Below are positions 7,721 to 60,261 of a stretch of 64,000 nt of DNA, piece by piece. This stretch comes from Escherichia coli (GTDB lineage: Bacteria > Pseudomonadota > Gammaproteobacteria > Enterobacterales > Enterobacteriaceae). Position 1 is the first letter of the stretch. Every line of letters starts with the position of its first letter. The notes beneath the pieces were generated by a model that was given only the letters and a program-made list of their open reading frames with translations, was not told the DNA's origin and made no database searches. The translations under genes were made by a program, and so were the position numbers. The stretch lies in the NCBI RefSeq assembly GCF_048403405.1, contig NZ_CP183136.1; one strand, written 5' to 3'.

Positions 7721-8232
7721 AACAGATTTCTTTCTTTATTCCTCTGCTGGGGACCTTATTACTTTCCGGCTGTGCCGGAACCAGTACGGAATTTGAGTGT
7801 AACGCCACCACATCCGATACCTGTATGACGATGGAGCAGGCCAATGAGAAGGCCAAAAAACTGGAGCAGTCCTCAGAAGCAAAGCCGGTTGCGGCATCAC
7901 TGCCGCGCCTGGCTGAAGGGAACTTCCGGACAATGCCGGTGCAGACCGTCACCGCGACCACTCCGTCCGGCAGCAGACCTGCGGTGACAGCACATCCGGA
8001 GCAGAAACTGCTGGCACCTCGCCCGCTGTTTACCGCTGCCCGGGAAGTGAAAACGGTTGTTCCGGTCAGTTCAGTTACGCCGGTAACACCTCCTCGTCCG
8101 CTAAGAACGGGTGAGCAGACGGCAGCATTATGGATAGCGCCTTATATTGATAACCAGGATGTTTATCATCAGCCATCCAGCGTGTTTTTTGTTATTAAAC
8201 CGTCTGCGTGGGGAAAACCACGTATTAATTAA
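7717..8232 (+). CDS. traV: TraV, outer-membrane lipoprotein of the T4SS
   Basis: Lipobox LLSGCAG near the N-terminus; 171 aa. Confidence 0.9.
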   Translation: MKQISFFIPLLGTLLLSGCAGTSTEFECNATTSDTCMTMEQANEKAKKLEQSSEAKPVAASLPRLAEGNFRTMPVQTVTATTPSGSRPAVTAHPEQKLLAPRPLFTAAREVKTVVPVSSVTPVTPPRPLRTGEQTAALWIAPYIDNQDVYHQPSSVFFVIKPSAWGKPRIN

Positions 8233-12387: not shown

Positions 12388-13376
12388 AGCGAAGGCTGTG
12401 GCTGCTGATGTTATTCCTTTTCGCCGGTCATGTCCCTGCGGCGTCTGCGGATTCTGCCTGTGAGGGGCGTTTTGTAAACCCGATCACAGATATCTGCTGG
12501 AGCTGTATTTTCCCGCTCTCGCTGGGCAGTATCAAAGTCAGTCAGGGGAAGGTCCCCGACACGGCGAACCCGTCGATGCCCATTCAGATTTGTCCGGCAC
12601 TGCCGCCGCTGTTCAGGCGTATCGGGCTGGCCATTGGTTACTGGGAGCCGATGGCGTTGACGGACGTCACCCGGTCACCGGGATGCATGGTGAACCTGGG
12701 CTTCAGCCTGCCGGCTTTTGGTAAAACGGCACAGGGAACGGCGAAAAAGGATGAGAAGCAGGTAAATGGGGCGTTCTATCACGTTCACTGGTACAAATAC
12801 CCGCTGACGTACTGGCTGAACATCATCACATCGCTGGGCTGTCTGGAAGGTGGTGACCTGGATATCGCTTATCTTTCTGAAATCGACCCCACCTGGACGG
12901 ACAGCAGCCTGACCACCATTCTCAATCCGGAAGCTGTCATCTTTGCCAATCCGATAGCACAGGGAGCCTGCGCAGCAGATGCGATTGCCAGCGCCTTTAA
13001 TATGCCTCTCGATGTTCTGTTCTGGTGTGCCGGTTCGCAGGGAAGTATGTACCCGTTCAATGGCTGGGTGAGTAATGAGTCCAGTCCGTTGCAGTCCTCC
13101 CTGCTGGTCAGTGAACGCATGGCGTTCAAGCTGCACCGTCAGGGCATGATTATGGAAACCATCGGGAAAAATAACGCCGTCTGTAATGAATATCCATCCC
13201 CAATCCTGCCCAAAGAACGCTGGCGTTACCAGATGGTGAATATGTACCCGGACAGCGGACAGTGCCACCCGTTCGGGCGCAGTGTGACCCGCTGGGAAAC
13301 CGGGAAAAATCCGCCCAATACAAAGAAAAACTTCGGCTACCTGATGTGGCGTAAACGTAACTGTGTCTTCCTGTGA
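12384..13376 (+). CDS. traU: TraU, pilus assembly / DNA transfer protein
   Basis: 330-aa ORF with signal peptide, conserved order. Confidence 0.9.
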   Translation: MKRRLWLLMLFLFAGHVPAASADSACEGRFVNPITDICWSCIFPLSLGSIKVSQGKVPDTANPSMPIQICPALPPLFRRIGLAIGYWEPMALTDVTRSPGCMVNLGFSLPAFGKTAQGTAKKDEKQVNGAFYHVHWYKYPLTYWLNIITSLGCLEGGDLDIAYLSEIDPTWTDSSLTTILNPEAVIFANPIAQGACAADAIASAFNMPLDVLFWCAGSQGSMYPFNGWVSNESSPLQSSLLVSERMAFKLHRQGMIMETIGKNNAVCNEYPSPILPKERWRYQMVNMYPDSGQCHPFGRSVTRWETGKNPPNTKKNFGYLMWRKRNCVFL

Positions 13377-13381
13377 GGTGA

Positions 13382-14023
13382 ATGATGAAGCTGAGTATGA
13401 AATCTCTGGCAGCACTGCTGATGATGCTGAACGGGGCGGTTATGGCGTCAGAAAACGTGAACACTCCTGAAAACCGCCAGTTCCTGAAGCAGCAGGAAAA
13501 TTTAAGCAGACAACTGCGTGAAAAACCTGACCATCAGCTGAAAGCCTGGGCGGAGAAGCAGGTGCTGGAAACCCCCCTTCAGCGTTCAGATAACCATTTC
13601 CTGGATGAGCTGGTTCGTAAACAGCAGGCTTCGCAGGACGGGAAACCCCGGCAGGGTGCCCTGTATTTTGTGTCGTTTTCCATTCCCGAAGAGGGGCTGA
13701 AACGAATGCTGGGCGAAACCCGGCACTACGGTATACCCGCCACACTGCGGGGCATGGTGAACAATGACCTGAAGACCACCGCTGAAGCCGTGCTGTCCCT
13801 GGTGAAAGACGGCGCGACTGATGGTGTTCAGATCGACCCGACGCTGTTTTCACAGTACGGCATTCGCAGTGTACCGGCACTGGTGGTGTTCTGCAGTCAG
13901 GGATACGACATCATCCGGGGAAACCTGCGGGTCGGCCAGGCGCTGGAGAAAGTGGCCGCCACGGGTGACTGCCGGCAGGTGGCTCATGATTTACTGGCAG
14001 GGAAAGGAGATTCCGGGAAATGA
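13382..14023 (+). CDS. trbC: TrbC, pilus assembly protein
   Basis: 213-aa ORF with signal peptide, conserved order. Confidence 0.85.
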   Translation: MMKLSMKSLAALLMMLNGAVMASENVNTPENRQFLKQQENLSRQLREKPDHQLKAWAEKQVLETPLQRSDNHFLDELVRKQQASQDGKPRQGALYFVSFSIPEEGLKRMLGETRHYGIPATLRGMVNNDLKTTAEAVLSLVKDGATDGVQIDPTLFSQYGIRSVPALVVFCSQGYDIIRGNLRVGQALEKVAATGDCRQVAHDLLAGKGDSGK

Positions 14024-24820: not shown

Positions 24821-27155
24821 ATGAGTTTTAACGCAAAGGATATGACCCAGGGCGGTCAGATTGCGTCCATGCGTATCCGCATGTTCAGCCAGATCGCCAA
24901 TATCATGCTTTACTGCCTGTTTATTTTTTTCTGGATACTCGTTGGTCTGGTTTTATGGGTAAAAATAAGCTGGCAGACGTTTGTGAACGGCTGTATTTAC
25001 TGGTGGTGTACCACGCTGGAAGGCATGCGGGATTTAATCAAGTCCCAGCCGGTATATGAGATCCAGTATTACGGCAAAACCTTCCGGATGAACGCTGCTC
25101 AGGTACTGCATGATAAATATATGATTTGGTGCGGAGAGCAGCTATGGTCCGCATTCGTTCTGGCCACAGTTGTGGCACTGGTTATTTGCCTGATTACCTT
25201 CTTTGTTGTCTCCTGGATTCTGGGGCGTCAGGGTAAACAACAGAGCGAAAATGAAGTCACAGGTGGTCGTCAGCTGACAGACAATCCGAAAGACGTTGCC
25301 CGGATGCTGAAAAAAGACGGCAAGGACTCCGATATCCGGATTGGCGACCTGCCGATTATCCGGGATTCCGAAATCCAGAACTTCTGTCTGCACGGCACGG
25401 TCGGGGCCGGTAAGTCGGAGGTTATCCGTCGTCTGGCCAACTACGCCCGTCAGCGCGGTGATATGGTGGTGATTTATGACCGTTCAGGGGAATTTGTTAA
25501 AAGTTACTATGATCCCTCCATCGATAAAATCCTGAATCCGCTGGATGCCCGCTGTGCCGCATGGGATTTGTGGAAGGAGTGCCTGACACAGCCGGATTTT
25601 GATAATACCGCAAATACTCTGATCCCGATGGGTACAAAAGAGGACCCGTTCTGGCAGGGTTCAGGACGTACCATTTTTGCGGAAGCGGCGTACCTGATGC
25701 GTAATGACCCCAACCGCAGCTACAGCAAACTGGTGGACACACTGCTTTCCATCAAAATCGAAAAACTGCGTACCTTCCTGCGTAATTCACCGGCGGCCAA
25801 CCTGGTGGAAGAGAAAATCGAGAAAACGGCGATTTCCATCCGTGCTGTGCTGACCAACTACGTGAAAGCCATCCGTTACCTGCAGGGGATTGAGCATAAC
25901 GGTGAGCCCTTCACCATCCGTGACTGGATGCGTGGTGTCCGGGAAGATCAGAAAAACGGCTGGCTGTTTATCTCATCGAACGCCGACACCCATGCCTCCC
26001 TGAAGCCGGTGATCTCCATGTGGCTGTCCATTGCCATTCGTGGTCTGCTGGCAATGGGAGAAAACCGTAAACGTCGTGTGTGGTTTTTCTGTGACGAGTT
26101 ACCCACGTTACACAAACTGCCGGATCTGGTGGAGATCCTGCCGGAAGCCCGTAAGTTCGGTGGCTGTTATGTGTTTGGTATCCAGTCCTATGCCCAGCTG
26201 GAAGATATCTACGGTGAGAAAGCGGCGGCCACGCTGTTTGACGTCATGAACACCCGTGCTTTTTTCCGTTCTCCCGAGCCATAAGATTGCAGAGTTCGCT
26301 GCCGGTGAGATTGGTGAGAAAGAGCACCTGAAAGCCAGCGAGCAGTATTCCTACGGTGCTGATCCGGTACGTGACGGGGTATCGACCGGTAAGGATATGG
26401 AGCGTCAGACGCTGGTCAGTTATTCCGACATTCAGTCTCTGCCGGATCTGACCTGCTATGTCACTCTGCCCGGACCGTATCCGGCAGTAAAACTCTCTCT
26501 GAAATATCAGGCACGACCGAAGGTCGCTCCGGAGTTTATTCCGCGTGACATCAACCCGGAAATGGAGAACCGTCTGAGTGCCGTACTTGCCGCAAGGGAA
26601 GCAGAAGGTCGTCAGATGGCCAGCCTCTTCGAACCGGAGGTTGCCTCCGGAGAAGATGTGACTCAGGCTGAACAGCCACAACAGCCACAACAGCCACAAC
26701 AGCCACAACAGCCACAACAGTCACAACAGCCACAACAGCCACAACAGCCACAACAGCCACAACAGCCACAACAGCCACAACAGCCACAACAGCCACAACA
26801 GCCACAACAGCCACAACAGCCACAACAGCCACAACAGCCACAACAGCCACAACAGCCACAACAGCCACAACAGCCAGTGTCTCCTGCCATCAACGATAAG
26901 AAGTCAGATGCAGGTGTGAGTGTTCCGGCAGGGGGGATCGAGCAGGAGCTGAAAATGAAACCGGAAGAAGAGATGGAACAGCAACTGCCACCCGGGATCA
27001 GTGAATCCGGTGAAGTGGTGGATATGGCCGCTTATGAGGCATGGCAACAGGAAAATCATCCGGACACCCAGCAGCAGATGCAGCGTCGTGAAGAGGTGAA
27101 CATTAATGTGCACCGGGAGCGCGGGGAGGATGTTGAGCCGGGAGATGATTTCTGA
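24821..27155 (+). pseudogene. traD: traD (coupling protein), frameshifted near 26275 as sequenced
   Basis: ORF 24821-26284 has Walker A GTVGAGKS and ends [11 protein letters not shown]; the TraD C-terminal region with the QQP repeat continues in another frame (ORF 26256-27155). Confidence 0.85.
26673..26870 (+). repeat. Tandem 9-bp repeat (CAGCCACAA, about 22 units) encoding the TraD QQP tract
   Basis: Repeat units read directly; one variant unit CAGTCACAA. Confidence 0.9.
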
Positions 27156-50167: not shown

Positions 50168-50335
50168 TTATAAAACTCCTTATGGTGTTTTTTTGGTGTT
50201 TGTTTGGGTGTGTTTTGGGCTTTAAATGGGTTTATTTGTCAAGTTTACCCCATTTTAACTATCAATCAATGATTATTTGTCTTGTTTTGGTGTTTTGTTG
50301 GGCTTGGTATGGGTTGTTTTTGGGTTTTGTTTGGC
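50168..50335. promoter_or_regulatory. parC: parC-like centromere/promoter region
   Basis: Clustered short direct repeats (GGTGTTTT/GGGTGTGTTTTGG-type) upstream of parM; boundaries approximate. Confidence 0.55.
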
Positions 50336-50347
50336 GGATAACAAAAG

Positions 50348-50660
50348 ATGTCGCCGGGCTCCTCTTTTTACTGCGCCGGCTGACGCGGCGCGGCATAAAC
50401 GCTGCCTGTGGTCAGTGTCCCGCGTCCGGTGGGCACGGGACGGGCGCTTTTACCGCTCCCGGCTGGCGTCGGTGACAGTGTACGCCAGCCTGTCGCCCTT
50501 TTCTGATGAACGCCCTTCAAGCCGCTTTCGCGGCATAGCCTTGCCGTCAGAAAGACGACGGCTGCGGTATTCCACGGTCGGCCTGACCCGTTACCGGACG
50601 CGGTGAACAGCCCACAGGCAGCGGGGAACGGGCGCCACAGGGGCGCCCTCCCGATGCTCC
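50348..50660 (+). repeat. Large repeat, family A copy 1 (about 315 bp, GC-rich, structured); candidate Frpo-type single-strand promoter
   Basis: Near-identical to 51652-51970; ORF-track entries 50277-50606 and 51567-51911 are the same sequence translated. Confidence 0.7.
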
Positions 50661-51603: not shown

Positions 51604-51651
51604 AGTATGACGGAGACGGGCGGGCAACCGCCCGTTTCTTTTCCGACAAAG

Positions 51652-51970
51652 GATGTCGCCGTGCTCCTCTTTTTACTGCGCCGGCTGACGCGGCGCGGCA
51701 TAAACGCTGCCTGTGGTCAGTGTCCCGCGTCCGGCGGGCACGGGGCGGGCGCTTTTACCGCTCCCGGCTGGCGTCGGTGACAGTGTACGCCAGCCCGTCG
51801 CCCTTTTCTGATGAACGCCCTTCAAGCCGCTTTCGCGGCATAACCTTGCCGTCAAAAAGACGACGGCTGCGGTATTCCACGGTCGGCCTGACCCGTTACC
51901 GGACGCGGTGAACAGCCCACAGGCAGCGGGGAACGGGCACCACAGGGGTGCCCTCCCGGTGCCCTCTGTA
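51652..51970 (+). repeat. Large repeat, family A copy 2; candidate single-strand promoter upstream of the methyltransferase operon
   Basis: Near-identical to 50348-50660. Confidence 0.7.
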
Positions 51971-55658: not shown

Positions 55659-55789
55659 TACAGGGCAGGCGGTGGAGGCCGCCTGTCAGCCCGCGCGAAA
55701 ACCCCTGGCAGGCTGGCGCCTGCCGGAAGGGAAGCGGGCCACGCTGGCGCGTCGCCCGTTACCCTTCCCGTTTGTGATGTGTCCGGAAT

Positions 55790-56395
55790 GTTTTTTCCTG
55801 ATGTTATGTTTCTGTGGTTACTGTTCTTCTTCTTCCTCTTCTTTCCGTTCCTCTCCTGTTTATGCCTTTTCCGGGCGTCCCCCTGGCGGGGCGGGCTGTC
55901 GTGAACGGAGCCAGCGGAGCTGTCTCCGCCCTGGCGGGCTTCCATCCCTGACGCAAAACCCCGGGTTTGCAGCGACCGGAACGGTCGCGCCACCCCTGTC
56001 GCGCCGTGGCCTGCGCTCCCGGCATCCCGGCAAAAAGACGCCGGGATGTAAGGAGCAACGCCGTTTCGCAAACCGCGCTTCACGTCGTTGCAGCGGGTCC
56101 CTGCTCATTGCCTGCCGGGTGCCACACACCCGTATGAGTCCCTGTCGCCGGGGGCTGATACAGCCACAACCTGCCGCACTGACTGTCCAGGGTAAATGAA
56201 CAGCCCACAAAATTTTTTACCCAAAACCCGGTAAAAAATTTTGCGTTCTGCCCAGGACAGGTGCGTCAGGCCGTGGCAGTGATGCCCCTTGCGGCGAAGG
56301 TTCTCAAACGGGTGAAGTTCATACCACAGGGAATACAGCAGCAGGTTCCCGCGAAACGTCAAAACCGCGGCTCCCGAAACTCAACGGGTGATGTT
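55790..56395 (+). repeat. Large repeat, family B copy 1 (about 600 bp); Frpo-type single-strand promoter candidate
   Basis: Long near-identity with 59040-59695, including hairpin CAAAATTTTTTACCC..GGGTAAAAAATTTTG. Confidence 0.7.
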
Positions 56396-56625
56396 CTTTA
56401 AAAATCAGGATTTATTTCAGGCTCCGGCAATACGCATTTATGTGTTCTGTCAGTCATCCGGCTGGCAGGTAATGAAAACGCAGGAACAGAAGGAGGAAAA
56501 CACCGGAAAGCGTCAGATGCAGATATGAAAAAAAGCAGGTCAGGGACCTGCTTAATCCACGCCGTAAGAATTGTGCGACCAATTTTGACGGCATTGTTAA
56601 CCAATTTGTCATAAGGAATCCATTT

Positions 56626-56856
56626 ATGACTGTAAGCATTGTTTCACCTTCCGCAGCGGCTGTAAAGCCCCGCCGTCATCCCCGTTTCAGACGCGAAGAC
56701 ATCCCCGCGCCGGAACTTGACCCCGTGCTGAAAGCCTTCGGGCGACACATTGCCCGGAGTTTTCGCCGGGGGCGTGGTGTACACATCCCCGCCATGAAAA
56801 ACACGGCCTTCGGGCAGGTGCTCCGCACACTCGAACTGAAACGCGCTTTTAACTGA
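56626..56856 (+). CDS. Hypothetical small basic protein
   Basis: 76-aa ORF, first after the family-B repeat. Confidence 0.4.
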   Translation: MTVSIVSPSAAAVKPRRHPRFRREDIPAPELDPVLKAFGRHIARSFRRGRGVHIPAMKNTAFGQVLRTLELKRAFN

Positions 56857-56907: not shown

Positions 56908-58269
56908 ATGACATTAGCAGCAATCACCATGACCGCCCCGGAAGCCGCCAGCCCGGTGCAGATGTACCGCGCGACCTACTCACCGGATGACAACAAACTG
57001 CGCCTGTATGCCGTGTCACGTCTTGACCCGGAGACGTATAAAAAAGTGCATGATGCCGGTTTTCGCTGGGCACCAGAACAGGCGCTGTTTGTGGCTCCAG
57101 CCTGGACACCGGGCCGGGAAGACGTGCTCCTCTCACTTGCCGGAGAGATTGAGGATGAAGACAGCACGCTCGCTGAACGTCAGGAAGCACGGGCGGAGCG
57201 GTTTACCGGATACAGCGGAAAGCGGGCCAGTGAATCCGCACAGGCACTTGATGAAGTGGAAAGACTGGCCGCGATGATCCCGCCCGGTCAGCCCATTCTT
57301 GTGGGGCATCACAGCGAACGCCGCGCCCGTCGTGATGCGCAGCGTATTGAAAACGGCATGAAACGTGCCGTGATGCTCTTTGAACGTGCGGAATACTGGG
57401 AAGAACGTGCGCGGTCGGCACTGCTTCACGCGAAGTATAAAGAACGTCCGGACGTTCGCTGGCGTCGTATCAAAAAAATCGAAGCTGATTTGCGCAAGGC
57501 TGAAAAGACCATCGCACAGTCGCAGAAATATCTGACGATGTGGCGGGCTGAATCGCTGGATCTGAATATGGCAAAACTCATCAGCAGTCATGACCATATC
57601 AGCGCCTGTTTCCCGCTGGATACGTATCCGCGCCCGGCAGAAAAAAGCCAGTATGAAGGAAGTCGATCGTTATGGTCGGCCCTGGATGATGACATCATCA
57701 CCACGGAGCAGGCCCGCGAAATTGCGATCCGCTGTCATGAACGGCAGATTCAGCATCAGCAACGCTGGGTTAACCACTATCAGAACCGCCTGATCTATGA
57801 GCGTGCCATGCTGGACGAAAGCGGCGGCGTGGTTACCCGGACACAGGATTTTGAGCCGGGCGGACAGGTTTTCAGCCGGGGCGAGTGGCTGACCATCATC
57901 CGCGTGAACAAAAGCAACGGGGCGGTGAGTTCAGTCACAACGCCGAATTACAGTTTTCTCGGGTACAGCGGCACGATGAAAGTGACGCCCGATCGCATCA
58001 CGGACTACAAAGCACCATCGGCAGAAGAGGCTGCCGTCGCCAGCCAGGCCGCGAAGCGTCCGCCGGTAGTCAACTATCCGGGGGAAGGTTTCCGGGAAAT
58101 GACAAAGGCGCAGTGGGCCGCCCTGCCCCGGGACTGTAAGGCCGTGCGCAGTGTGGCAGAGACAGAAGACCACGGGGCATACCGCTACCGCCGCACAATG
58201 GACAATAATTTCCGCCTGGTGAATGTGTATATCACCGACATGAAAATCACGGAAATCCCGCAGAAATAA
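56908..58269 (+). CDS. Hypothetical leading-region protein, 453 aa
   Basis: Clean ORF with coiled-coil-like central region; no domain recognised. Confidence 0.55.
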   Translation: MTLAAITMTAPEAASPVQMYRATYSPDDNKLRLYAVSRLDPETYKKVHDAGFRWAPEQALFVAPAWTPGREDVLLSLAGEIEDEDSTLAERQEARAERFTGYSGKRASESAQALDEVERLAAMIPPGQPILVGHHSERRARRDAQRIENGMKRAVMLFERAEYWEERARSALLHAKYKERPDVRWRRIKKIEADLRKAEKTIAQSQKYLTMWRAESLDLNMAKLISSHDHISACFPLDTYPRPAEKSQYEGSRSLWSALDDDIITTEQAREIAIRCHERQIQHQQRWVNHYQNRLIYERAMLDESGGVVTRTQDFEPGGQVFSRGEWLTIIRVNKSNGAVSSVTTPNYSFLGYSGTMKVTPDRITDYKAPSAEEAAVASQAAKRPPVVNYPGEGFREMTKAQWAALPRDCKAVRSVAETEDHGAYRYRRTMDNNFRLVNVYITDMKITEIPQK

Positions 58270-58315: not shown

Positions 58316-58879
58316 ATGCACAGTCAGTTAAAAGAACGTATCCGGCTGATGCGCGCAAGGCTGGATAACGCCGCGCCGGTTGCTGAAATCCGGGCTGAAT
58401 CTCAGCTTTTTGTGACTCCTGCCCCGGTCTGTGATCGCCTGGTGACGCTGGCGGAGATCAGCAACCGTGATCACATTCTGGAACCCTCTGCCGGCACCGG
58501 GGCCATACTGCGGGCGATTCGTCATGTCGCGCCGGGGGCCATGTGTGATGCGGTGGAGATTAACAGCGGGCTGGTCCGGTATCTGCGGGATAATTTTAAC
58601 GGTGTCAGGGTTCAGTGTGGCGACTTCATGGAATGGCAGCCGGTGCAGTATTACAGCCGGATTATCATGAATCCGCCGTTCAGTCACGGGCAGGATATCC
58701 GGCATATCCTGCGGGCTTTTTCCCTGTTGCGTCCGGGTGGTGTGCTGGTTGCCGTCTGTCTGAACGGGCCGCGCCAGCAGGAGAAGCTGTTACCGTTTTC
58801 TGATGTCCGCGAGGTGCTGCCGTGCGGCACATTTGCTTATACCCGTGTTCCGACGATGATTATTCGTCTGCGTGCCTGA
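58316..58879 (+). CDS. Small orphan AdoMet-dependent methyltransferase (probable DNA amino-methyltransferase)
   Basis: EPSAGTG AdoMet motif and NPPF catalytic motif; no adjacent endonuclease. Confidence 0.75.
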   Translation: MHSQLKERIRLMRARLDNAAPVAEIRAESQLFVTPAPVCDRLVTLAEISNRDHILEPSAGTGAILRAIRHVAPGAMCDAVEINSGLVRYLRDNFNGVRVQCGDFMEWQPVQYYSRIIMNPPFSHGQDIRHILRAFSLLRPGGVLVAVCLNGPRQQEKLLPFSDVREVLPCGTFAYTRVPTMIIRLRA

Positions 58880-59039
58880 TGACTCCGGGCAGGCGGGAGG
58901 ATAAATGCCCGTCTGCCCGCGCCGGGAAAAGACCGCGCGCCGGTGGCGCTGAAAGGGGCCGCGCTTACGCGCCGCCCCTTTCATTACGCGGACGTTCTGC
59001 TGTGGGCTTCTGTCTTTTCAGACCTGTCATTTGCTTGTT

Positions 59040-59695
59040 ACTGATGATGTTGTTGTTCCTGCTACTGCTACTGCTACTGCTACTGCTACTGCTACTGCTA
59101 CTGCTACTGCTACTGTTCTTCTTTTTTCTGCTGCTCTGATTACTGTCTGTTTTGTTGTTCTCCTGCTTATGCCTTTTCCGGGCGTCCCCCTGGCGGGGCG
59201 GGCTGTCGTGAACGGAGCCAGCGGAGCTGTCTCCGCCCTGGCGGGCTTCCATCCCTGACGCAAAAACCCGGGTTTGCAGCGACCGGAACGGTCGCGCCAC
59301 CCTTGTCGCGCCGTGGCCTGCGCTCCCGGCATCCCGGCAAAAGACGCCGGGATGTAAGGAGCAACGCCGTTTCGCAAACCGCGCTTCACGTCGTTGCGGC
59401 GGGTCCCTGCCCGTTGTTCTGTCCGGTGCCATTCACCTGTTTAAGCCCCTGTCGCCGGGGGCATAGACAGCCACAACCTGCCGCACTGACTGTCCAGGGT
59501 AAATGAACAGCCCACAAAATTTTTTACCCAAAACCCGGTAAAAAATTTTGCGTTCTGCCCAGGACAGGTGCGTCAGGCCGTGGCAGTGATGCCCCATGCG
59601 GCGAAGGTTCTCAAACAGGTGATGGTGAATACCGGAGGGAACAAAAGGCAGGTCCCCGCAAAACGTCAAAACCGCGGCTCCCGAAACTCAACAGA
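59040..59695 (+). repeat. Large repeat, family B copy 2, upstream of ssb; Frpo-type single-strand promoter candidate
   Basis: Near-identical to 55790-56395 apart from the hexanucleotide tract and a short variable segment. Confidence 0.7.
59059..59115 (+). repeat. Hexanucleotide microsatellite (CTGCTA), about 9.5 units
   Basis: Read directly; absent from the paralogous repeat copy, which has an irregular pyrimidine tract instead. Confidence 0.9.
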
Positions 59696-59733
59696 TGATG
59701 GGGGCTGAAAACATCAACAGAAGGAGACACATC

Positions 59734-60261
59734 ATGGCAGTTCGTGGCATTAACAAGGTCATTCTTGTCGGTCGTCTGGGAAAAGATCCGGAAGTCCGTT
59801 ACATCCCCAACGGGGGCGCAGTGGCAAACCTGCAGGTGGCCACGTCAGAAACCTGGCGCGACAAACAGACGGGGGAAATGAAGGAGCAGACGGAATGGCA
59901 CCGCGTGGTGCTGTTCGGCAAGCTCGCGGAAGTGGCAGGTGAATATCTGCGTAAGGGGGCGCAGGTCTACATTGAAGGCCAGCTTCGCACCCGTAGCTGG
60001 GAAGATAACGGTATTACCCGTTACGTCACCGAAATCCTTGTTAAAACCACGGGCACCATGCAGATGCTGGGGAGTGCACCACAGCAGAACGCTCAGGTGC
60101 AACCGCAGCCTCAGCAGAATGGTCAGTCACAGAGTGCTGACGCGACGAAAAAAGGGAGCGCGAAAACGAAAGGCCGTGGACGTAAGGCTGCGCAGCCGGA
60201 GCCTCAGCCGCAACCACCGGAGGGGGAGGATTACGGGTTTTCAGACGATATCCCGTTCTGA
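59734..60261 (+). CDS. ssb: Plasmid single-stranded DNA-binding protein
   Basis: 175-aa ORF with SSB fold sequence and acidic C-terminal tail DDIPF; ATG at 59734 within ORF 59695-60261. Confidence 0.95.

Follow-up and report, generated by a model that had tools for sequence, protein, structure and literature searches.

Does a perfect short tandem repeat in front of the ssb gene of an F-like plasmid tune the early expression of ssb and psiB, or is it a sequence that simply tends to slip and whose length matters little? The question is raised by an array of the hexanucleotide CTGCTA in the window, by which we mean the whole stretch of 64,000 nucleotides (nts) that was analysed. The reading that we favor, to which we assign a probability of about 0.8, is that the array is a non-coding repeat of the VNTR-37 locus carried on an IncFII F-like plasmid, that it lies outside the Frpo2 module, and that it is prone to slippage and near-neutral in its length.

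Sequence and position of the array

Tandem Repeats Finder (TRF) reported at 59059-59115 a perfect (CTGCTA) array with a period of 6, 9.5 copies, 100% matches and no indels. The raw sequence agrees with this result, and also with the first-pass annotation, which had described a tract of about 9.5 units at this place. The value of 9.5 is the TRF count, which becomes 9 or 10 according to the rounding convention and is not on the EDL933 MLVA allele scale. For such an array to form by chance, 51 bases must copy the first unit, and direct calculation gives a probability of approximately 4^-51 per site and, when both strands of the 64 kb are counted, approximately 1e-26, which excludes chance.

The window represents an almost complete IncFII F-like plasmid, in which Rfam finds the traJ 5′ UTR, FinP and CopA. 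The plus strand at approximately 1100-1130 is what we take to be the reverse complement of the F/R100 oriT nick region, and from this orientation the transferred strand is the minus strand of the window, with the leading-region genes on the plus strand. The assignment is supported by F ssiD, because Samuel et al. list it in transferred-strand orientation and it matches the minus strand. On the transferred strand the array reads (TAGCAG)n.

Upstream of the array is the DUF3560-methyltransferase operon and downstream of it the Frpo2 (ssp1b) module, from which ssb and psiB are expressed; the array itself occupies the spacer that separates the two. Table 1 gives the features around it. The local order is an antirestriction cluster, Frpo-like copy A (approximately 55850-56400), the DUF3560 gene (56908-58269), the methyltransferase gene, inverted repeats and the array, which is followed by a pyrimidine tract, a GC-rich domain, the ssiD/Frpo2 homologue, ssb, DUF905, a ParB-like gene, psiB and psiA. 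The inverted repeats after the methyltransferase gene could be terminator hairpins of the upstream operon, with no clear U-run behind them.

Table 1. Coordinates of the array and of the features surrounding it in the window
Feature	Position	Strand	Basis and remarks
Paralogous pyrimidine-rich tract preceding the other Frpo-like copy	55789..55889	+	TRF and composition; TTC x6.7 at 55824-55843, no CTGCTA array
Gene for a class I SAM-dependent methyltransferase, closing the upstream leading-region operon	58316..58879	+	ORF, Pfam, related plasmids
Two GC-rich inverted repeats after the methyltransferase stop	58886-58919, 58950-58983		12-nt and 15-nt arms, 92-93% complementary
PulseNet VNTR-37 forward primer site	58971..58997	+	2 mismatches in the window, 0 in pO157; overlaps the right arm of the second GC-rich inverted repeat
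Perfect hexanucleotide array (CTGCTA)9.5	59059..59115		TRF, sequence, allele counts, primer mapping; orthologue of VNTR-37 / O157-37
Pyrimidine-rich tract (C+T at least 80%), poor in A, immediately downstream of the array	59116..59179	+	Composition
PulseNet VNTR-37 reverse primer site	59130..59166	-	0 mismatches in the window
Conserved GC-rich structured domain common to Frpo-like copies	59157..59354		Located between array and ssiD homologue; predicted separate stem-loops (transferred strand)
Homologue of F ssiD / Frpo2 (ssp1b) single-strand promoter	59355..59704	-	89% identical to D90178; predicted hairpin 59371-59687
Plasmid ssb (annotated start MAVRG...), the first gene under Frpo2 control	59735..60261	+	ORF / plasmid comparison

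The tract had been described as lying inside the repeat copy upstream of ssb. It does adjoin that element, but it is found at the upstream edge and not within it: high-identity homology to the other copy in the window begins at approximately 59157, the gapless match of 90% begins at 59114, and homology to a third copy in related plasmids (99%) begins at 59124, just past the array.

Identity with the typing marker VNTR-37

The array is the same locus as the E. coli O157:H7 MLVA marker VNTR-37, also called O157-37, on pO157, and it is already known rather than new. VNTR-37 is a marker in routine use for the typing of E. coli O157:H7 (PulseNet / Keys et al. MLVA) and is described as a 6-bp repeat on pO157, "inside ORF L7083" (PMC3321953). 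In 202 strains the repeat number ran from 3 to 17, with 11 alleles and a diversity index of 0.82 (PMC3321953). The PulseNet primers, the sequences of which are printed in the same report (PMC3321953), flank the array in convergent orientation, and each of them matches the window once and the shuffles not at all. In pO157 of strain TW14359, both primers match perfectly and the array is located between methyltransferase and ssb genes, as in the window.

The unit of 6 bp, the bracketing primer sites, the pO157 context from methyltransferase to ssb and the polymorphic copy number were all found, and the ranges of repeat number are comparable (3-17 in the literature, 1.5-16.5 here). The difference is that the window's array is carried on an IncFII F-like plasmid and not on pO157. 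The O157 hexanucleotide loci VNTR-3, -9, -17, -19 and -25, as well as VNTR-36 (7 bp, on pO157), belong to the same marker class and show similar allele ranges, and the in vitro mutation rates published for O157 MLVA loci of this class are 4e-5 to 1e-4 per generation. These other loci occupy different genomic positions, and only VNTR-36 and VNTR-37 are plasmid-borne and so horizontally transferable. In the MLVA papers on VNTR-37 that were consulted we found no mention of Frpo, of the leading region or of the position relative to Frpo2, and a full-text literature search with the repeat as a sequence string gave no plasmid paper among the matches listed.

Variation of copy number among plasmids and metagenomes

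The first-pass annotation had supposed that the tract varies in length and might be a slipped-strand hotspot, and had suggested comparing the repeat number across related plasmids. When eight related plasmid loci were fetched, the seven for which directly counted units are given had 3.5, 6.5, 7.5, 8.5, 9.5, 10.5 and 16.5 units. Repeat number is thus not invariant, and the related plasmids differ in the number of whole units. The immediate junctions of these seven alleles were identical, with only scattered point differences further out. For pO157 of TW14359, the length of the match implies 6.5 units, which were not directly counted, and match lengths in pO157 records of clonal O157:H7 imply 5.5-8.5 units. 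The 2-kb region around the array matches at least 5000 plasmid records, and in those with at least 99% identity the match lengths ran from 1965 to 2001 in steps of 6, apart from one of 2006 and one of 1964, each one base off.

A wider sample was obtained by an exact-match scan of metagenome contigs with the left flank alone, which gave 119 loci and 118 complete alleles. Among the 118 alleles, the median repeat number was 5 and the extremes were 1.5 and 13.5 units, always in whole-unit steps, and only 9% of them reach the length of the window's allele. The arrays were nearly always unbroken, interruptions being found in 3 of the 68 arrays of the main junction class. No allele had lost the array completely, the minimum being 1.5 units, which is also expected from slippage alone. 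The array was downstream of the methyltransferase gene in 114 of 121 metagenome matches. Between alleles the total length of the spacer differs by 90 nts, and no compensating change was found in the flanks.

Among 26 pairs with identical 790-nt flanks, copy number differed in 69%, compared with 90% of unrelated pairs; flank identity barely predicts copy number. Since so large a fraction of identical-flank pairs differs, the array changes much faster than a flank of approximately 800 nts gains one substitution. Changes at this locus have also been recorded directly, because published serial passage of O157 strains yielded one single-unit insertion and one multi-unit deletion at O157-37, with a rate of 4.3e-5 per generation in each strain where a change occurred. 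Together with the whole-unit variation, these passage changes bear out the notion of a slippage hotspot. On the other hand, an epidemic plasmid group from Klebsiella, Salmonella and E. coli (records of 70,438-70,817 bp, most of them exactly 70,656 bp) showed one match length in about a dozen isolates, indicating that the locus is not switching at very high frequency.

Of 5426 complete E. coli genomes, 1224 (about a quarter) carry the locus, almost always on plasmids, and it is also found in plasmids of Klebsiella, Salmonella and Shigella. Because the backbone that carries it is mobile, F-like and shared with these other genera, the typing locus is neither O157-specific nor vertically inherited.

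Pyrimidine-rich tracts upstream of Frpo-like copies

In the 64-kb window, a pyrimidine content of at least 80% is reached only by the two tracts given in Table 1, each of which is found just upstream of a Frpo-like core. The paralogous place near 55800 had been said to hold an irregular pyrimidine-rich tract only, and this is what we observed, the TTC run there being imperfect. In all five distinct tracts examined, from the window, a Shigella plasmid and F, T accounts for 45-52% and A for 4-11% of the bases, and the tracts are 70-130 nts long. Beyond the window they are located at approximately 13090-13200 of a related plasmid (L007) and at approximately 7950-8085 and 13340-13473 of F (L127). 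Each tract has a simple repeat of its own, which is CTGCTA here, TTC in copy A and CCTCTTCTT-like in F. At the equivalent place of ColIb-P9 (L129, approximately 12720-12750) there is only a short T-rich stretch of approximately 30 nts, and therefore a long tract is not a general requirement. The tracts could be a functional, unstructured insulator or terminator, or equally a low-complexity sequence that is tolerated.

If they were functional, the array might be the expandable part of an insulator that ends transcripts of the methyltransferase operon, by Rho loading or by a weak RNA-DNA hybrid, and so shields the Frpo2 hairpin from read-through. The tract is purine-rich and unstructured on the transferred strand, its RNA copy would be rich in U and C, and its length could then matter. 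The location of the only two such stretches of the window upstream of both Frpo-like cores and the constant composition of the five tracts are consistent with this idea, as is the predicted absence of structure in the region, both as RNA and as DNA. However, the argument is compositional throughout, and the CTGCTA unit itself is only 67% pyrimidine and contains neither of the dinucleotides UC and CC that Rho prefers. Moreover, the long tract is absent from ColIb-P9, and the spacer tolerates the above difference in length with unchanged flanks. We therefore consider a role of the array in insulation unlikely. The stronger form of the idea is that array and tract together would make a length-tunable insulator, altering how often upstream transcription or complementary-strand synthesis reaches and melts the Frpo2 hairpin, and this seems to us very unlikely. 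If it were true, repeat length would set the duration of zygotic ssb/psiB induction, and lineages would differ in establishment.

Relation to the Frpo2 single-strand promoter

The first-pass annotation placed the tract inside a candidate single-strand promoter. In F, Frpo2 is required for early ssb expression (PMC9849209), and Samuel et al. found that a Frpo2 fragment before acrIIA4 conferred leading-region-dependent anti-CRISPR protection. We located Frpo2 in the window by homology to ssiD and to this published functional fragment rather than by hexamer calls; its -35 and -10 hexamers were sought by eye, with no convincing assignment. The functional fragment aligns to 59447-59736 with 97% identity. 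The array ends 240 nts short of the ssiD homologue and 330 nts short of the functional fragment, and the published construct, which starts at the equivalent of 59447, expressed the leading region without the region of the array.

When the transferred strand was folded as DNA, a long hairpin (59371-59687) and a second set of stem-loops (59146-59370) were predicted, with -180.6 kcal/mol and a z-score of -12.5, and the array was unpaired in the centroid fold. Arrays of 1.5 to 25.5 units were then modelled, and the predicted fold of 59116-59735 was 96-100% unchanged, with a mean pairing probability of 0.70-0.71. A sigma-70 promoter scan of 58700-59800 gave none, and terminator-like matches were no more frequent than in shuffles; the Rfam gathering scan of the whole window gave no family within 58800-59750. 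The array thus lies outside the sequence homologous to ssiD/Frpo and takes no part in a predicted stem-loop, unlike what is expected for part of a class 1 promoter of the Frpo / ssi type. Its placement inside the promoter has to be given up, because it lies outside both the ssiD homologue and the functional fragment, is unpaired, leaves the fold unaffected and has no sigma-70-like promoter across it.

The array and Frpo2 (ssp1b, of the F ssiD type, class 1) are adjoining and share one intergenic region, and the array borders on the upstream end of the repeated element that contains Frpo. In contrast, it is outside the ssiD homologue, the hairpin and the functional fragment, and Frpo2 of F exists without it: F (NC_002483.1, the sequence used here) has no CTGCTA array and no DUF3560-methyltransferase block. 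Its exact position relative to the Frpo2/ssp1b module therefore removes the array as a candidate promoter element.

This result bears on the proposal that the array is a tunable part of the single-strand promoter and acts as a contingency locus, its length setting the level or timing of early ssb/psiB expression. The array is indeed length-polymorphic and lies upstream of Frpo2, and since a delay in the leading region's conversion raises PsiB output in F (bioRxiv 10.64898/2026.01.09.698686), upstream sequence could matter in principle. Against this, the distances of 240 and 330 nts place the array outside a fragment that is sufficient for Frpo2-driven expression, the predicted fold of the promoter is insensitive to repeat number, and F has a functional Frpo2 without the array. 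The measured rate of change, approximately 4e-5 per generation, is modest, and a 6-nt unit at this position fits neither frame shifting nor the spacing between -35 and -10. Phase-variable contingency loci, such as the tetranucleotide genes of Haemophilus and the promoter-spacer repeats of Neisseria, likewise mutate by slipped-strand mispairing within a perfect array of short tandem repeats. However, the unit of the present array keeps the reading frame, the array is not between promoter hexamers, no supported gene runs across it for it to switch, and its rate is modest. A tuning role for repeat number is accordingly unsupported rather than disproved, and on the present evidence we hold it to be quite improbable.

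The GC-rich domain between the array and the ssiD homologue (59157-59354, and 55850-56048 in copy A) is as conserved among the Frpo copies as the promoter hairpin, and a stretch of approximately 90 nts is identical in the two copies of the window. Neither the ssiD sequence as published nor the functional Frpo2 fragment includes this domain. Downstream of the array, 37 of the 118 metagenome alleles carry the first half of the domain in a ColIb-like version.

Coding potential of the array

The array could in principle encode part of a poly-Ser protein on the minus strand (L7083 in pO157) or a plus-strand poly-Leu micro-ORF, MMLLF(LL)nFFFFLLL*, rich in the rare codon CUA. No stop codon interrupts the array in five of the six frames, some records carry a PGAP annotation of a minus-strand hypothetical protein of approximately 150 amino acids that spans it, the locus is placed within ORF L7083 by the MLVA literature, and a stop codon of the Leu frame 21 nts past the array is common among the loci. 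However, the four ORFs across the array matched no Pfam family above the cut-off, giving only the low-complexity SR-25 and Fig1 below threshold, and the boundaries of the Ser-frame ORF are not conserved, with 27 start/stop classes in 82 loci. The minus-strand ORF is antiparallel to every leading-region gene and overlaps conserved structured DNA, while the ATGATG of the Leu frame is not preceded by a Shine-Dalgarno-like sequence. Hydrophobic ORFs arise from pyrimidine-rich DNA whatever the frame, and from the paralogous tract too. As for annotation, the gene table of PLSDB, which is incomplete, has no gene under the match in most plasmid records, and RefSeq E. coli records give a hypothetical protein. 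A coding function is the least probable of the explanations considered here and hardly credible; judged from its sequence, the array appears to be non-coding, as far as can be told.

Three further candidates were rejected: DnaG primase CTG sites, as the transferred strand carries TAGCAG without CTG, a Chi-like sequence, for which there is no similarity to Chi, and a triplex-forming mirror repeat, for which there is no mirror symmetry.

Origin and meaning of the length variation

The pattern in the population is one of whole 6-nt units, which would be gained and lost by strand slippage during DNA synthesis. MutS-dependent mismatch repair of E. coli corrects loops of up to approximately 4 nts, and loops of 6 nts escape it. 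Slipped intermediates therefore tend to be fixed. Conjugation adds rounds of synthesis on a single-stranded template and may be an additional source of slippage. In the recipient, the complementary strand would be made in the direction of transcription, so that the polymerase would copy (TAGCAG)n just before the folded GC-rich domain and the Frpo2 hairpin, where a pause favoring slippage is plausible. A different leading-region hairpin, ssp2, stalls this synthesis in F (bioRxiv 10.64898/2026.01.09.698686).

Under our preferred reading as a slippage-prone, non-coding VNTR, repeat length most likely has no effect on ssb/psiB expression and would behave as a near-neutral marker of plasmid lineage. 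We judge the length to be near-neutral because the spacer varies by 90 nts with no compensating change of the flanks. A hint against neutrality is that a pyrimidine tract recurs upstream of every F-type Frpo copy examined, and the spacer itself could matter. The array is a routinely typed VNTR and no new regulatory element, and it could serve as a fast marker for tracking lineages of F-like plasmids. The pyrimidine-rich, repeat-spawning spacer before each F-type Frpo copy is a regularity relevant to research on single-strand promoters.

Neighboring elements and other repeats

The compared loci differ in the genes around Frpo2. In F (L127, NC_002483.1, 7650-8650), everything from Frpo copy A to the methyltransferase gene, DUF3560 included, is missing, and Frpo2 directly follows the antirestriction/DUF1380 cluster, with CCTCTTCTT-type repeats in the upstream tract in place of CTGCTA. 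The first downstream gene in the metagenome loci (L008-L126) was classed by BLAST. In 10 of the 66 contigs with at least 1.3 kb downstream (for example L020, 730-1020 of the oriented extract), the VNTR and Frpo were followed first by a ygeA-like gene instead of ssb, and the ssb-psiB-psiA-hok block was absent at that position. Couturier et al. predicted recombination between Frpo copies, and replacement of the ssb block by a ygeA-like gene is the outcome expected from it.

PGAP annotates a hypothetical protein of 68 amino acids (WP_000547944 / WP_000547965) inside the Frpo2 hairpin at four loci (L001, L004, L006 and L128), corresponding to approximately 59500-59708 of the window. The frame lies just upstream of ssb, is interrupted in the window and probably represents a spurious ORF across the single-strand promoter. 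The only Rfam match near the array was to AS-pc01 (antisense to pHK01_035), on the minus strand at 56530-56631 between Frpo copy A and the DUF3560 gene, with 79.4 bits, just at the gathering score; it would correspond to antisense transcription within the leading region.

Three other sets of repeats were observed in the window. A tandem array of the 9-nt unit AACAGCCAC (x22.9, 98% matches) is located at 26671-26876 and encodes a long (QQP)n run in a mechanical ORF of 299 amino acids on the plus strand (26256-27155), presumably the C-terminal part of TraD from its position in the tra region; this array is probably another length-variable repeat. At 50184-50334, two adjoining arrays of 11-nt repeats, GGTGTTTTTTG (x3.2) and TTGTGTTTGGG (x4.9), are found beside an ORF that matches parM in related plasmids, and they look like centromere iterons of the parC type. 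Finally, at the start of the leading region there is a direct repeat of 300 nts (50341-50640 and 51646-51945), the copies of which are 97% identical and 1305 nts apart.
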